DNA of 61,566 nucleotides from Escherichia phage P13771. Shown in pieces: positions 12,001 to 18,000 of the stretch (the stretch's first letter is position 1; the number at the start of each line of letters is the position of its first letter). The stretch lies in sequence record HG792104. The stretch is one strand, 5' to 3'. The position numbers are program-made.

Positions 12001-15000
12001 CGATCGCTGAGATATAATCGTTGTACGCCTCTTCAGCTTTTTCGCCAGTGAGTGCTAGTTGGGCTTCTTTGGGTAAAAAAAGGCTGCTCATAAGCAATGG
12101 TTTATCGGGGAACATGCTGATAAGCTCCTGCGCCCGATCATCAATCCATTTATCCTTTTCATCCTGAATTTGCTGATTAATCCAGCGACGCTCCTCTATG
12201 CGGTCGCAGGTGAGGTATGCGTTCATGGCGGAACTCCTGATTCCGGTTAATGCATTAAATTAATTTGTCGGGAAAGCTGACATACAGGGCAGTTACATTC
12301 TTCCTCCTGCTCCTTAGCGAAGAAATATGCAGCGGCCTGTAATGCGATATCTTCTGGATGTTCCGCGATAAACATAACATTGCCTTCCGTATCAATAACA
12401 GAAATAGCCTCATCAGACAGGACGACAAAATAGGCGATGATTTTATCATCCATAAAAACTTCTCCCATTATCGTTCCTGCTGGAGTTACGACGCTTTTTA
12501 CATTGATATTTATTTTTTGATTGAGCATGATATTTCCCTTCAGGCTGGTGAGATTAACGGTTGGCCTTTATTGTTCAGGTAAACTTCTATTGCATCTGAG
12601 ATAATGCGAATTTTTTCAATCAGTGAATGTGCGTAAAGTGCATTATTAACGTTCGCTGACGCCATGTAATAACGCCCGTTGTAAAGAATTGCTGTGCCGG
12701 GTTTAACGTCCTCGCGAGAAACTAATGCGGTTCCGTAGTGAGGTTTGAGCATGACAAATCCTCCGGTTAATTAATCCAGATATTTAATTTAATCCCCGAT
12801 ATGTGGTCGGGGATGGGGTTAATTAAAGATTTACGTTGAAACCAAAGCGGGAAGACTTTTCTGATGTACGGGAAATATCCAGCAATTTACGGCGCATTTC
12901 TTCCGTCAGATGCTTGAAGGCGTTAAATTCGGCGACAGCGGCGTCAACGTTATAGCCTTTGCTGTGTAGCTCATTGAGGATGCGCATAGTTGGGCTTGGC
13001 ATATCGAAGAGCACGGAAGCATCAAGGCTGATAACCTTGCGATCAACATAGTTCATCGTGGCGTAGGGATGGTTATCTGAGAACCACGAGAGAGGGTAGT
13101 TGATAGATAGCGTTGATTCTGGAAGCTGAAGTTGTTCTGGGATTTTTTGACTGAAATAGCAGTCTTCCAGTTTTTCGAACACTTCCCACGCCCGATCGGT
13201 TTCGAGCATTTTTGCGTGACGGGCTGCGCCGCGTTCTGTCCAGAGGATGAGGGAGCGAACGTTACGGGCGATTTTCACAGAAGGTCTTAAAGACATGCTG
13301 TGCTTAAATTCCCGCAACTCCTCATTCTCAAGTAAAAAGTAGTGCTTACCGATAACAAATCGTCCAGAATTCCGATTGAAATTTTTTCGGATGTAATCTG
13401 GTTCTGTGCCATATAAGCTGGCAAGAAGCTCTGTAGTCACCACAGGTATATTACTAAATGAAATTATGGAGAGGGACTCCACGGAGATGGTTTTCATGCT
13501 TTGCGTCCTACTTGATATTTTGATTTACCCCTTTTGAGAGGGTGACCGGGCGCTCAAAACCGCAAGTAGTCGGCGGGCATATTCCCATTGCTGGTATTGT
13601 ATTAGCCGCACGCCCGGTCATAAACCAAGAAGACTGGACACAAAAAAACCGCATGTCTGTCGGGCGCGGTAACCGCTACTTGCTAAGGTGTTTTGAGCAC
13701 CATGAGGCAGAATATATCCCCGTTAATGCAGCATTGTCAAACGATCTGTTCTTTAAAGACTTAACGAGAAGCCTTTTCGGGAATTTCGATCTGACAGTCT
13801 TGAAATATCCTGTAGCGTGCGGCGCATTTCTTCCGTCAGATGCTTGAAGGCGTTAAATTCGGCGACAGCGGCGTCAACGTTATAGCCTTTGCTGTGTAGC
13901 TCATTGAGGATGCGCATAGTTGGGCTTGGCATATCGAAGAGCACGGAAGCATCAAGGCTGATAACCTTGCGATCAACATAGTTCATCGTGGCGTAGGGGT
14001 GATGCTCTGAAAACCACGACAAAGGGAAATTGATATTCATCGCAGGAGAAGACAGGGCCAGTTGTTTCTGTTCCCATAGTTGTTTTTCCATGCGATCGAA
14101 TTCAGCAATGTAGGCTTCCTTGAATGCAGCTGCTTTTTTGCCGGTGAAGCCCATCACCAGAAAAACGAAGCCGTTTTTGGTGATTTGGTACATTGGGCGT
14201 TGTTCGCCTTTGGCGTCGGTGTAGGTAACGTCCGCAAAATTGCGGGCGTTAAATTCCGTAGAACAATCCATCAATCGGATTTTTTTTAAAACGTCGTCGT
14301 GCCGCTTGTCAAAAAATTCAGCAATAGCAATAGACGTTGTGACAACGCGACCATTGGTAATGGTGATTTCAGGTTGAGAAAGGGCAGGGATAGTAGCCAT
14401 AATGGCAGCCTCCTTGATTGGTGATTGAGAACCACCGCAGGAGGTCCTAAGCTCGCTGGCGGTGGACTGTACAGGGTTAGGACTACTGGCAATCAAGGGA
14501 ACCAGCCCGACCGAAGTCGGCCCCATACAGCCCACCATTGATAAGATGTGCGTGTATATCGATACAAAAAAAGACGCTGGCGCGTCTGTATCGCCTCGAT
14601 TGTCAGCGGGGTCCTAATCCCGACACCCGTTTTATAAGGTGTTCGCCAAATATAGCCCCCGACATCACACGCAGTCAATACCGTCCTTTCTCAGAAACGC
14701 TTTGGCGGTGCCGCCTGCACCCCAAAACATTCCCTGTATTGGTCAGCGCCAACTTCCTGCCAGTGTTGCCCGTTCTCACGCCGTTCTCGCTCTCGCGCGG
14801 GGATACTCTCTCATCGACCGGATCGCACCCGATGATACAGCACGTTTACGTGTAGGGGTCTAAACAGGTCATTGACGCTGTAAAGCTCCAGGTTGTTAAA
14901 GAGCATTTTGCGGCGGGTTAAGTCGCGCCGTACGACTGATTTATGTAGCCCTGTGTAAGGGCGCGATGTTTCTGGCTTGAAAGAAATATAACTTGCGGTG

Positions 15001-18000
15001 ATTTTCATGTAAATACCGTTAGTGGTTATTGGGGGTGAAAAAATATTACTTAACTGATTTTTAAAGTGATTTATTTTTTAAGGGGACAGATAACAGGAGG
15101 GGATATGCAAAGAAAAACCCGGCGCATGGGCCGGGCTATTTATCTGGTCCTGTTCTCATTCAGTAGAGTAGGGGCCAAGAAATCGCACTCCGTTGAAGTG
15201 AATAAGATGAGAAGGTGCATCAGCCACCCATACCTCTGTTTCCCATGCGATTTCACCAAGATATCGCCCCATGATGGAGCGATTTGGAAAAGCGGTCACA
15301 TAGACAAGTCCGGCTGTTGATCCGGCAAACAGCCTGGCAAGCTCAGCATGCCGCTTCCCATCAACCGGTCCATGACTGGTGACAGACTCAACCAGTAGCA
15401 GCCAGTTTTTCGCAGTAAAATGTAGCACCACATCTGGCATTTTACCGTGTGAATCCACATCAACACCTAGCCCGGCCAGCAGTGGAGCGTCGAAGTAGCC
15501 CCACTTTTCGCCAGTGTCGCCAGCATAGACCAGCACGCTACCCGGAGCAAAACGTGGGGCGAAGTCCTCTATTATGGCACGGATAAGTTCGCTGTGCTCG
15601 CCGGGACTGAGGGTTATTTGCTGGCCCGCAGCAATTTCAACAGGGATACGATTCTGTTCGCGCTCCTTAGCATAGCGGGTAACCAGCGTTTCACGCTCGG
15701 CTAAATAGGTTGCAAGGCTATCGTGCCATGCCGGGCTGCCGAAAGTGCGTAGCATGGACAGAGCAGCAGGTTCGATCTGATAAACAGCCTTCGGGCTGTT
15801 CACTGGGCGATCGGGCTTGTCCGGATTGTAGAGGGCTACTCCAGCAGCGCAGAACTGATGCATAGACTGGCGGCGGAATGTCTCACGAGTATTGGGTGCG
15901 TAGACCTTGCCGTAGTGCTCCCGAACCCAATTCATGATTGGTGTAATGCCCACAAGCGGATTTTCCGCGTCGGCCCATGCTTTTCCCGGTGTGAGGTTCA
16001 GGAGTGCCAGCAAACACAAAGCAGAACGCTCATTCTGCTGCGCTCTGGGCAGGCCTAAGGATGCTATAATTTGCTGAGCGGCCTCAATATAATCATTTTG
16101 GTTGTTCATGCAGTCAGAGCTCCTAGCTTAGCGTCAATATGTTCTTGCGTGAGAGTTTCTTGTTGCATAGCCCACTTGCCAAGCTCTATCAGAGTGTCAC
16201 GGCTTGGGTACTTAATCATCTTGAGGTCGGTTGCATTGACCTGTGTATGCCCGTTGAAGCGACGGAAGTACTTATCCACTGCGGTAGTGTTCAGGAACAC
16301 GGCCAAGCCACGGGCCAGCGCCTCGGGTAACCCATGTTTGTTCTCATGAAACACGTTCATGTGATTTTCAAATCCCAACACTGAATACTCACTGAAGGTA
16401 GCAGGATCAACGACGCTTGCTACCACTCGGCGCTTTTCCTCCTTCGACGAGAAACGACGCACCACACAATAAAAACCGTTCGGGTAAAGCCACTTTTCTG
16501 TCTCGTCGTTGCGCATGATTGCGTTGGGTTTCTTCAAACCTTCCACAGGCCAGACAGTGCTACTCATACTCAAATGGCTCGGGTAGATCAGGGGAACAGT
16601 TCCTTCTTCTGGCATGCTGCGCAAATGAGCTTTCAGTCGGAAATCAACTATCGGTCCGGTCGATACCTTCACGCCAATATCAGCCAGCGAACATTGTACG
16701 GCAGATGATAACTCAATGGTGCTTTTCTCGAGCGTGGTCGGCACATGAATAAACCGCTCCGAATCGTCCGGGTACACAATCTGGTCAAATGGGTGTTCGT
16801 AGGTGACCAGGTCAAAAAAGCTATCATCGGTCGAAGTTGTGACTGTAACAGCCTCCTGACGGCCTCCACGCTCCAGGCGGATGATAATATTTTCCTGCAA
16901 CACATCGTCATCCCTGAAAGCTTTGCTACGTGATTCGAACAAATGAATATGGCGGATTGCTGCCCGCTCAAGTATGAAATTACGGAACGGACGGTAATAC
17001 GGTCCGTTGCAGAAACTACGTGGGATTATGGCCACTATCTGCCCGCCAGGTGCAACCTCACCTACAGCCAGTGCAACAAAGGCGGAATACAGATTTACCG
17101 TCTCGATACCGACAGTGCGAAGAGCCTGCCGGTGGGCTGACTGGCTATTGATCTTCTTGTAAGGCGGATTAAGTATTGCATGGGTATAACCTCGATCCTG
17201 TAGACCTTCGGCGGTTGCCAGCTCAATATAATCCCCTTCGATGATGCGGGGCGTCACTCTCCTGTACCCGGTTAAGTGCTTCGCAAGGTGACCACACAGC
17301 TTTTTGTCGATTTCGTAGGCTGTTGCCTCGACAGACTCAAAGCCAAACTCGCCAACCAGCCAACGGTCGAGGAAGGCGCAAGACAGTGCGCCTAAACCAG
17401 CGCCTGCGTCCAGTAGACGGCAAGTTTTCATTGTGCTCGGTGGAAACAAGGAGGCCATAAAACGGGCCACGCCAGAAGGCGTCATGAACTGGCCGAACTC
17501 TGCTTTGTGTTTACGCGCGGTACGGGGAGACAGCTCGCGACGCACGCTGTCTGCGACGTCTAGCTTTTGAAGCATAACTAATCCTCTTTACGTGGCATGA
17601 TGATGCCAACGTGCTTTTGACATCCTCCACATTCTTCAGGCGTGAAGGATGTCAAATCACTCTGTGAGCTCAATCAAAAGTCTCATCATTCCACTGCGAT
17701 TTGATGACCTTTCCGACAAACTGGCAGTTTTCGTTACACTCAATCATGTCGAATCGTGGGTTGAGCGGCTCCAGGTACGCTTTACCGCTCTCACGAATGA
17801 ATCGTTTGAAGGTAAATTCATCGCCGTTCATTCGGGCCACGCAAAAATCGCCATCCTCGATTTCCCGTTCAGGGTCAACGAGTATCAGCATACCTTCAGG
17901 GAAGCTGGGTTTACCACCCTGCGGTGCGGTCATTGAATGCCCCTTGACCTCCAGCCAGAACGACCTGTCACTGGCTTTTGTGGTGGTGGAGATCCATTTA

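Follow-up and report, generated by a model that had tools for sequence, protein, structure and literature searches.

A mosaic joint in the early-left region of a lambdoid Stx2a phage without N: a consensus boxA, a cloverleaf-like leader RNA and an IsrK/C4/antirepressor cassette

How is early-left transcription sustained in a lambdoid phage presenting a consensus boxA and a strong terminator downstream of its pL but no N gene? This question is raised by a locus of Escherichia phage P13771 (sequence record HG792104), for which a preliminary description had considered a frameshifted or decayed N in a defective prophage, an assembly indel or N-independent antitermination. We analysed the whole stretch of 61,566 nt, hereafter called the window, which we identify as an Oslovirus-type Stx2a prophage of the TL-2011c/P13374/PA2 group. 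Sequence identity of the region to TL-2011c, P13374, PA2 and related phages amounts to 95-99.9%, and in none of these phages is an N annotated. The evidence favours N-independent antitermination as the predicted mechanism, and we consider it probable that this lambdoid Stx2a phage (Oslovirus) is naturally devoid of N and has a mosaic joint at this site, with passage by boxA and Nus factors in place of N. The features supporting this reading are collected in Table 1.

Table 1. Features of the early-left region of the window, in the order of transcription from pL
Feature	Position	Strand	Basis
pL-like sigma-70 promoter, TTTACA-17-TATATT	14985..15013	-	promoter scan
boxA TGCTCTTTAACAA, exact rrn consensus, 13/13	14893..14905	-	motif search, 0 mismatches
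Cloverleaf-like leader RNA, ~133-135 nt	14746..14878	-	covariation and MFE folds
Leader helix H1	14878..14872 with 14752..14746	-	covariation
Leader helix H2	14868..14863 with 14761..14756	-	covariation
Leader helix H3	14857..14855 with 14771..14769	-	covariation
Leader hairpins enclosed by nested H1-H3	Pa 14852..14841, Pb 14835..14811, Pc 14800..14781	-	covariation
ATG of 12-codon ORF, 3' strand of hairpin Pb	14812..14814	-	fold and alignment
Arginine-rich-motif-like stretch PARERERRENGQHW, non-coding, hairpin Pc and 3' strands of H3 and H2	14760..14801	-	fold
Recombination joint CGCCAAAGCGTTTC, end of the phi80-like sequence ahead of the IsrK cassette	14694..14707	-	six-way alignment
IsrK-like RNA promoter, TTGACT-18-TATATT	14649..14678	-	promoter scan; conserved in TL-2011c and PA8
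IsrK-like small RNA, RF01394	14567..14642	-	cmscan, 61.7 bits (gathering score 50)
IsrK specificity loop, TTAGGAC	14617..14611	-	alignment of alleles
IsrK intrinsic terminator, AGACGC-GCCA-GCGTCT + T7	14587..14566	-	terminator scan
C4-like antisense RNA, RF01695	14455..14542	-	cmscan, 78.9 bits (gathering score 45)
C4 loop, GTCCTAA	14483..14477	-	alignment of alleles
Predicted C4 target TTAGGAC, upstream of antirepressor ribosome-binding site	14444..14450	-	allele covariation
Rha-family regulator/antirepressor gene, first early-left gene	13753..14400	-	Pfam Phage_pRha, 1.6e-30

The pL-like promoter, with a likely transcription start near 14976, is flanked by operator-like 17-mers (14987..15003 and 15089..15105) resembling the perfect palindrome TATCACCTTTGGTTATA that adjoins cI (18388..18404), and the homologous position in phi80 carries the annotation 'O-L region'. 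About 70 nt downstream of it lies the boxA that the preliminary description had reported, which matches the rrn consensus without mismatch and is the only exact copy of TGCTCTTTAACAA in the whole window; we calculate that chance alone would produce about 0.002 exact matches to a 13-mer in 2 x 61.6 kb. The pR operon of the window contains no second boxA with up to two mismatches, i.e. no nutR, the window holds no second copy of the leader, and the terminator scan detected no convincing intrinsic terminator from pR to Q. In the left operon, the IsrK terminator is the only terminator before ~4 kb. From the predicted pL start to the first plausible start codon the transcript comprises at least 440 nt, which are untranslated, harbour three structured RNAs and contain no conserved frame. 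A 65-aa ORF with the boxA inside begins in the -35 hexamer; since this lies ahead of the likely transcription start, translation of the ORF from the pL transcript is impossible.

The boxA constitutes the 5' border of a phi80-type leader module, which from boxA to ~14718 is 94-95% identical to the pL leaders of phi80, HK225 and KO-TP1, in which the boxA takes the form TGCTTTTTAACAA. The suggested nutL-type position is borne out, the 188 nt of leader starting at boxA being 94.7% identical to the stretch of phi80 that separates the oL region from the annotated N ORF. All 64 aligned leader variants carry a boxA-like sequence, the flank upstream being entirely different. The leader was detected in 224 of the 5426 complete E. 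coli genomes searched and in no fewer than 120 IMG/VR viral contigs, with one copy per phage; it matches no family in Rfam, and the phi80-type pL leader RNA family is defined in the present analysis, not curated.

Downstream of boxA, the leader folds into a cloverleaf-like element in which the nested helices H1-H3 enclose the hairpins Pa, Pb and Pc. Across 70 distinct leader sequences 98.2% of the cells are paired and 15 of the 35 pairs show compensatory changes, compared to 29-46% paired and 2-7 such pairs in slid controls, these counts being made on the same sequences from which the structure was derived, with variants representing few independent lineages and hairpin Pb being kept invariant by the way the search pattern was built. 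In the window sequence all 35 pairs are present, and independent MFE folds of divergent leader members recover the same architecture. The element is combined with different downstream genes: among the 120 loci these belong to an isrK-ant cassette in 28, to a type encoding an acidic protein of 145 aa in 31, and to the phi80 'N' ORF type in eight, and many unrelated families are found overall.

The six-way alignment locates the joint of the modules. On the far side of the joint motif, the sequence leads to the first gene's ribosome-binding site in phi80 and KO-TP1 and to the isrK promoter in the window, TL-2011c and PA8; PA8 has ~105 nt of extra phi80-like leader, up to the joint motif, and the 105-nt deletion of the TL-2011c type ends before the folded element. 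As judged from this alignment, the N slot has been replaced by recombination at CGCCAAAGC(A/G)TTTC. The phi80 pL leader (GenBank X13065) occupies the same place just downstream of oL/pL and has the same folded element, but continues for ~140 nt more, followed by a 98-aa ORF annotated as N, where the window has the IsrK/C4/antirepressor cassette. This phi80 ORF is of unknown function in PHROG and 'hypothetical' in RefSeq. Tanaka and Matsushiro reportedly described N, nutL and tL1 of phi80 in the journal Gene in 1985.

Within the cassette, the Rfam isrK match begins 7 nt downstream of its promoter; the IsrK-like region also overlaps a weak c4-a1b1 match. Three alleles, TTAGGAC, TTGCTAC and TTCTCAC, show perfect covariation at three 7-mer pairing sites, the IsrK loop in each being identical to the target and to the reverse complement of the C4 loop. 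By this complementarity, the C4 loop can be predicted to pair with the IsrK loop and with the site upstream of the antirepressor ribosome-binding site. The antirepressor gene product falls into PHROG transcriptional-regulator and antirepressor families, and an in-frame upstream extension of 46 codons (ATG 14538) is placed like orf45 of Gifsy-1. The IsrK-like and the C4-like RNA are both annotated already in at least one public record, LC710660.1. The order of promoter, IsrK-like RNA with terminator, C4-like RNA and antirepressor, as well as the complementary loops, covarying here, is shared with Gifsy-1 isrK-orf45(STnc1160)-anrP, P1/P7 immI (c4-icd-ant) and P4 CI/seqA/seqC. In Gifsy-1, however, the cassette lies downstream of antQ (PMC4825925) and not behind pL in the N slot, and here the orf45 equivalent is fused in frame with the antirepressor.

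The clean terminator noted previously is real (Table 1), but because the cassette is self-contained, with its own promoter and an IsrK-like RNA, this terminator ends a small RNA and is not an N-dependent tL1. The argument that its presence implies N-type antitermination is therefore not supported. The homologous Gifsy-1 IsrK terminator is naturally leaky and partly read through, with trans-activation by the short RNA shown in that system (PMC4825925).

We also agree with the preliminary description that no N-like ORF follows the boxA. The ORF list and frame inspection revealed none, and tblastn of the window with five types of N, i.e. the phi80 'N' ORF, Edno5 N and the N proteins of lambda, P22 and 933W, gave no match. 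As in the lambda-type N/nut systems (lambda, P22, 933W/H-19B), boxA comes soon after pL and is followed by hairpins, within the layout of cI, accessory genes, oL/pL and leader; unlike these, the window lacks an N protein and a nutR, its first hairpin with an A-rich loop lies 41 nt from boxA and not beside it, and it shares neither DNA nor protein similarity with their N regions.

We propose a model according to which the cI-controlled pL would drive a phi80-family leader consisting of the consensus boxA and the cloverleaf-like RNA. Upon loss of the repressor, pL transcripts would have to cross the long untranslated structured RNA and one intrinsic terminator. We infer that, as happens in CRISPR arrays and rrn operons, boxA would recruit the host factors NusB/S10, NusA, NusG and SuhB, and that this complex, perhaps together with the leader RNA, would shield the untranslated transcript from Rho. 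Against this model, Nus complexes of the rrn type act, as far as is known, mainly on Rho-dependent termination, and their influence on intrinsic terminators is modest. The IsrK terminator might be passed by leakiness, or its passage be modulated by RNA-RNA pairing; the leader RNA may also have a part in the passage. A close parallel is the boxA/Nus system of rRNA operons, Salmonella CRISPR arrays and suhB, in which the identical boxA consensus heads a long untranslated structured transcript and for which N-independent antitermination is established (PMC7665894, PMC5725501); the window differs in being a phage early operon with an intrinsic terminator downstream instead of Rho-dependent termination alone.

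Alternatively, boxA and leader might be an orphan nutL, idle leftovers of a phi80-like ancestor with an N-type protein, the early-left genes being expressed by leakiness and from internal promoters. We regard this as possible, though rather unlikely. The only recognisable N among the 120 leader loci is that of a divergent subgroup, the Edno5 type (phrog_271, Pfam N_peptide), encoded two genes downstream of the same type of leader, so that the leader may be an N-utilisation site whose partner is missing here; moreover, the rightward operon of some relatives contains another boxA, which the window lacks, and strong internal promoters are predicted at 14678..14649 and 13740..13711 (promoter scan). 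Against a relic, 110 of the 120 loci have an intact leader but neither the phi80 'N' ORF nor a recognisable N, the leader helices are maintained by compensatory changes, the Oslovirus boxA is the exact rrn consensus and not degraded, and the deletion of the TL-2011c type spares the folded element. Still, boxA and leader could be a recent, as yet undecayed relic, and the Oslovirus members are such close relatives that conservation within the group is no proof of constraint.

Less likely than a relic, in our view, is that the leader RNA itself acts, possibly with the help of boxA, as a protein-independent processive antiterminator resembling HK022 put or Bacillus EAR, modifying RNA polymerase for passage of the IsrK terminator and of the sequence beyond it. 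A large, covarying, promoter-proximal structured RNA heading a long operon would fit such a role, as would its portability in front of many unrelated first genes and its occurrence in phages mostly without a recognisable N; put-like mechanisms have already been proposed for N-less lambdoid phages (PMC12315714). HK022 put is likewise an RNA element just downstream of pL in a lambdoid phage without N, but is made up of two stem-loops of ~70 nt located where the transcript begins, and a second copy, putR, follows cro (PMC9378689), whereas the window has a single-copy cloverleaf of ~135 nt preceded by boxA, and the leader profile gave no match in the pL/pR region of HK022. In a broader form, we tentatively suggest that the boxA-linked cloverleaf of ~135 nt may represent an undescribed class of cis-acting RNA for N-independent processive antitermination, alone or with host Nus factors; if true, such a class would explain the N-less life of Stx2a phages of the O104:H4 type and of many phi80-like phages.

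A further explanation, which we judge improbable, is that the leader serves as nut site for an antiterminator protein that has escaped recognition, its gene being located elsewhere in the phage or being a small ORF that lacks annotation. In favour of this, N proteins are of small size and diverge fast, an N-like gene lies in an unusual place in mEp021 (PMC11893012), and hairpin Pa (CACG-UAAA-CGUG), 41 nt from boxA, has an A-rich loop resembling those of boxB and a covarying stem. The Pa loop, however, varies freely among near-identical leaders (UAAA, AAAA, AGAAA, AUAAA), no candidate antiterminator is conserved beside the leader over the 120 loci, and the PHROG-based annotation of one Oslovirus lists no N-like protein.

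In contrast to boxA/Nus passage in a naturally N-less phage, a decayed, frameshifted or indel-disrupted N in a defective prophage is extremely improbable and, as far as sequence analysis allows, already refuted: the identical sequence is found in over 100 phage records and in 224 E. coli genomes, speaking against an assembly indel, the group includes members on record as complete phage genomes, e.g. vB_EcoP_phi349, and blastn of 14680..14990 retrieved no N region of 933W, H-19B or lambda. As had been stated, two TGA codons are the only interruptions of the frame from 15008 to 14493, which includes the arginine-rich stretch PARERERRENGQHW but crosses three modules of different, unrelated origin. 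This stretch lies in conserved non-coding RNA. It has no start codon, as described before, and a TGA immediately upstream; its frame is broken by stops in the relatives L106 and L128, closed and non-coding in phi80 too, and without match in Pfam and PHROG. The presumed likeness to the arginine-rich motif of lambda N did not hold, BLASTP giving a non-significant alignment (E = 0.18) outside that motif. The 12-codon ORF exists as well, with its ATG at 14814..14812 and not at 14815. We rejected this ATG as a gene start: it forms a strand of hairpin Pb, and phi80-type sequences have GTG at this position. Its A pairs with U and is replaced in phi80 by a G pairing with C (CAUCG/CGAUG versus CACCG/CGGUG), and because the pairing partner changes in step, the ATG/GTG difference is a compensatory change.

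The two signals that the preliminary description had placed behind pL, an rrn-type boxA and a clean terminator ahead of the early-left genes, are both present, the boxA as an exact match, and together with the gene order of the region (Table) they confirm the earlier observation. The boxA has no second exact copy within the window, the chance expectation for an exact 13-mer in a sequence of this size being about 0.002 (arithmetic estimate). The operator-like 17-mers at pL are similar to a perfect palindrome, TATCACCTTTGGTTATA, beside cI. The BsuBI/PstI-type pair stands between cI and pL, where lambda has rexAB. 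A 65-aa ORF containing boxA was rejected because its start lies inside the -35 hexamer and it has no family match.

Table. Early-left elements of phage P13771 from the cI gene to the first antirepressor gene
Element	Position	Strand	Remarks
cI repressor gene	18383..17670	minus	
BsuBI/PstI-type methylase and endonuclease	17575..15156	minus	
Terminator ending the methylase/endonuclease pair	15137..15116	minus	
Operator-like 17-mers	14987..15003 and 15089..15105		one overlapping, one preceding the pL-like promoter
Promoter-like site (pL), TTTACA-17-TATATT	15013..14985	minus	promoter scan
boxA, TGCTCTTTAACAA	14905..14893	minus	about 70 nt 3' of the pL-like promoter
phi80-type leader RNA	14878..14746	minus	about 135 nt
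isrK promoter, TTGACT-18-TATATT	14678..14649	minus	ends 7 nt 5' of the isrK match
isrK match	14642..14567	minus	Rfam, 61.7 bits (gathering score 50)
Terminator, AGACGC-GCCA-GCGTCT + T7	14587..14566	minus	terminator scan
C4 antisense RNA match	14542..14455	minus	Rfam, 78.9 bits (gathering score 45)
Rha-family regulator, first real early-left gene	start 14400	minus	preceded by a good AAGGAGG site

In the surrounding 900 bases, identity to Stx2a phages of the genus Oslovirus (among them TL-2011c, P13374, other O104:H4 phages, phi191, PA2/PA8 and Ss-VASD) is 95-99.9%. This group takes in the O104:H4 outbreak phage as well as the PA2-type (PST2) phages within O157:H7 clade 8 (PMC4587872). An N gene is missing from all annotations of these relatives, including the PHROG-based annotation of vB_EcoP_phi349. 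Among 5426 complete E. coli genomes, 224 carry this leader, always without annotation, and this recurrence excludes the assembly indel suggested earlier; a one-off defect of a single prophage, also suggested, is unlikely since the group consists of records deposited as complete phage genomes.

A sensitive DNA search with 14680..14990 retrieved the Oslovirus phages, phi80, HK225, Klebsiella phage KO-TP1 and, more distantly, Edwardsiella phage Edno5. The phi80 match (94.7% over 188 nt) begins exactly at boxA and has, in phi80, the annotated O-L region on one side and the ORF designated N on the other. In a six-way alignment the sequences are unrelated 5' of boxA and near-identical from boxA onward, the upstream segment being the immunity-specific part. 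PA2-type phages retain about 105 nt of additional phi80-like leader, which reaches as far as the motif CGCCAAAGC(A/G)TTTC. There, phi80 and KO-TP1 lead into the first gene's ribosome-binding site and the Oslovirus phages into the isrK promoter. It follows that recombination replaced the N slot, and that no N gene decayed in place.

The absence of an intact N gene, as originally proposed, held up in tblastn searches. Queries with the phi80 'N' ORF, Edno5 N and lambda, P22 and 933W N, run against the window and all leader loci, and with HK225 gp40 and gp39, KO-TP1 gp28 and Edno5 gp50, run against the window, gave no match in the window. Translation of all three frames, Pfam and PHROG scans and BLASTP against lambda N likewise gave no sign of a decayed N. 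A decayed N or an assembly error is effectively excluded.

Leader variants were gathered from IMG/VR, where a scan for exact matches to the 29 best-conserved nucleotides found the pattern in at least 120 contigs; the listed contigs gave 64-83 distinct variants in roughly five or six subgroups, and in all variants listed the 5' border still has a boxA-like sequence (e.g. TGCTTTTTAACAA, TGCTCTTTAACAA, CGCTCTTTAACAA, TGCTCATTAACAA). MFE folds of divergent members repeatedly converge on three nested long-range helices, H1, H2 and H3, enclosing the hairpins Pa with an A-rich loop, Pb, the high conservation of which is a consequence of the search pattern, and the variable Pc. A local ACAG/CUGU hairpin (14854..14837 region) was considered as an alternative to H2 and is disfavoured by these folds and by compensatory changes in Edno5. 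Across 70 distinct sequences, 98.2% of cells in the proposed structure hold a standard pair (slid controls 29-46%, column shuffles 94.8%) and 15 of 35 pairs are changed on both sides (slid controls 2-7, column shuffles 5.8 ± 1.5), the structure being derived from the same sequences as were used for counting and the lineages being few. The leader has no Rfam family match, even at E up to 10. Whatever its function, the leader is a conserved, folded and widespread RNA whose structure has covariation support.

The putative N remnants fall within this fold. The arginine-rich stretch PARERERRENGQHW, read from 14801..14760, corresponds to hairpin Pc and the 3' strands of H3 and H2; its proposed likeness to the lambda N motif did not hold, the BLASTP alignment (E = 0.18) lying outside the arginine-rich motif, and Pfam and PHROG gave nothing for it. 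That its frame lacks a start codon was borne out on translation, a TGA inside Pb directly preceding it, in phi80 as well, and stop codons interrupt the frame in two leader subgroups (L106 and L128). The ATG of the 12-codon ORF, located at 14814 and not at 14815, falls in the 3' strand of Pb, its A pairing with a U in a compensatory change, as the phi80 pair is C-G.

Other small ORFs were seen around related leaders. One at GGCAGGAUG in HK225-type leaders was discarded, having no family match and poor ribosome-binding-site spacing. At the 3' edge of the fold in HK225 (L003, 3149..3275) and in locus L021 lies an unannotated ORF of 41-52 codons (MRGAKRK(Q/K)IYSSPF...), conserved at the protein level between these two divergent leaders, with no family match and poor ribosome-binding-site spacing. 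Just after many phi80-type leaders (IMG/VR loci L016, L017, L028, L041, L044, L063, L076 and others) comes a mini-ORF of three codons behind a good ribosome-binding site (AGAGGAGTGATTCCAATGAAGCACTAA, Met-Lys-His-stop), perhaps encoding a leader peptide or serving for coupling.

Among the 120 listed loci with enough DNA 3' of the leader, the first genes belong to many unrelated families: the isrK-antirepressor cassette follows in 28, a 145-aa acidic protein in 31, the 98-aa ORF of phi80 in eight and other unrelated families in the remainder. The phi80 ORF belongs to a PHROG without an assigned function, and RefSeq lists it as 'hypothetical'. Within these listed loci a recognisable N occurs only in the most divergent subgroup, i.e. 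Edno5 (L005, 3780..4004) and one relative (L035, 9160..9381), as the second gene after the leader; it begins MNSRQRRAMRYRA and matches phrog_271 (1e-10) and Pfam N_peptide (30.1 bits, cut-off 27.9). In Edno5 this is gp49, annotated as a 106-aa 'hypothetical protein', which holds the N-like antiterminator when read from an internal Met (MNSRQRRAMRYRA...). At least one lineage thus links the leader type to N; the leader is also kept, compensatory changes included, before many non-N genes.

In the Oslovirus phages the N slot holds a small-RNA cassette. The 3' end of the isrK match is the strong terminator of the preliminary description, which therefore belongs to this cassette, and the isrK match is overlapped by a weak Rfam match to a1b1, the C4 target family. 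The order promoter, IsrK, terminator, C4-like RNA, antirepressor is that of the Gifsy-1 isrK-orf45(STnc1160)-anrP locus, where the terminator lets some IsrK transcripts through and the long RNA is translated upon activation by the short one (PMC4825925). An in-frame 46-codon extension of the antirepressor from ATG 14538, positioned like Gifsy-1 orf45, is open in all alleles. There are three alleles, TTAGGAC (window), TTGCTAC (TL-2011c) and TTCTCAC (PA2 type), and in each the 7-mer of the IsrK loop equals the 7-mer just 5' of the antirepressor ribosome-binding site and the reverse complement of the C4 loop. This three-way covariation strongly indicates that the cassette functions as an antisense switch like those of P1 immI, P4 or Gifsy-1. 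Both RNAs are already annotated here in the public record LC710660.1, and their right labelling guards against spurious ORFs being annotated in the interval.

A profile search found one leader copy per phage, and a second, nutR- or putR-like copy is absent from the window and its relatives by blastn-short and nhmmer profile searches. In the IMG/VR relatives L065, L070, L083 and L100, the boxA portion of the profile has a weak additional match on the opposite strand, 1.2-2.4 kb away, which may be a nutR-type boxA site of the rightward operon in those phages; the window has none of this kind.

We counted as established the anatomy, of which we are highly confident, the absence of N and nutR, the IsrK-like RNA's own promoter and terminator, the antisense covariation and the leader fold. 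The mechanism we propose on this basis is tentative, with somewhat less than an even chance of being right. Upon repressor inactivation, pL transcripts would nucleate the host Nus complex at the consensus boxA, in the manner of rrn operons and the CRISPR arrays of Salmonella (PMC7665894, PMC5725501), and this complex would guard at least 440 nt of untranslated structured RNA against Rho. The IsrK terminator would be crossed by leakiness, as in Gifsy-1, its passage possibly being tuned by IsrK/C4 pairing or by the leader RNA. That the leader is an N-independent antiterminator RNA working with boxA we consider unlikely.

It is plausible, albeit improbable, that boxA and leader are a functionless relic of an N-using ancestor, a reading that the N of Edno5 supports; maintenance of the fold and the exact consensus of boxA argue against this. 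We regard it as possible, at a still lower probability, that the leader RNA alone acts as a put- or EAR-like antiterminator. It differs from the put RNAs, the N-independent antiterminators of HK022, in sequence, architecture and copy number, and the leader profile has no match in the HK022 pL/pR region; a short GAACGGC motif common to both was noted by eye, yet gave no profile match. An unrecognised trans-acting factor, which would supply antitermination in place of N, is very improbable.

N-dependent antitermination is a textbook step toward Q and Shiga toxin in 933W and H-19B. The Oslovirus phages have neither N nor nutR, and on the plus strand of the window the terminator scan found no convincing intrinsic terminator from pR to the Q region (18426..23770), the first strong one (23750..23769) following a pR'-like promoter (23692..23719); they retain a perfect boxA and a conserved folded leader at pL. 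Such a stretch free of terminators fits a route to Q and stx2 that does not need N. Leftward, no strong terminator other than that of IsrK occurs before about 4 kb. If boxA and leader are functional, early-left expression, i.e. of antirepressors, kil, recombination and excision genes, would rely on host Nus factors or on RNA alone, a difference that might affect the kinetics of induction. All components are of kinds already known (boxA, the nutL region of phi80, IsrK and C4 RNAs). In the literature searched, which did not extend to the original phi80 papers, the lack of N or an orphan boxA in Oslovirus was nowhere stated explicitly, and we found no description of a consensus boxA and phi80-type leader without N in O104:H4-type Stx2a phages, of the replacement joint at the N slot, or of the leader as a structured RNA family that is widespread and supported by covariation.

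Further small RNAs were found nearby. Three Rfam sRNA-Xcc1 matches (65-80 bits) lie on the minus strand at 13536..13619, 5240..5329 and 4705..4790, each about 90 nt 3' of a strong promoter-like site (13740..13711, 5450..5421 and 4936..4907, respectively), the first just 5' of a second antirepressor gene with an ORF6N domain (13497..12823), which suggests that the early-left arm may hold several small-RNA-controlled modules. The two antirepressor-like genes (12823..13497 and 13753..14400) differ in their N-terminal domains (ORF6N and Rha) and end in a near-identical C-terminal stretch of about 80 aa, recognised through identical 47-aa shadow ORFs at 12906..13049 and 13836..13979. Just downstream of stx2B, at 25803..26062, are Rfam matches to STnc100 (207 bits) and AsxR (88 bits), and three tRNA genes lie 5' of stx2A (24146..24394), all of which are ordinary for Stx2 phages.
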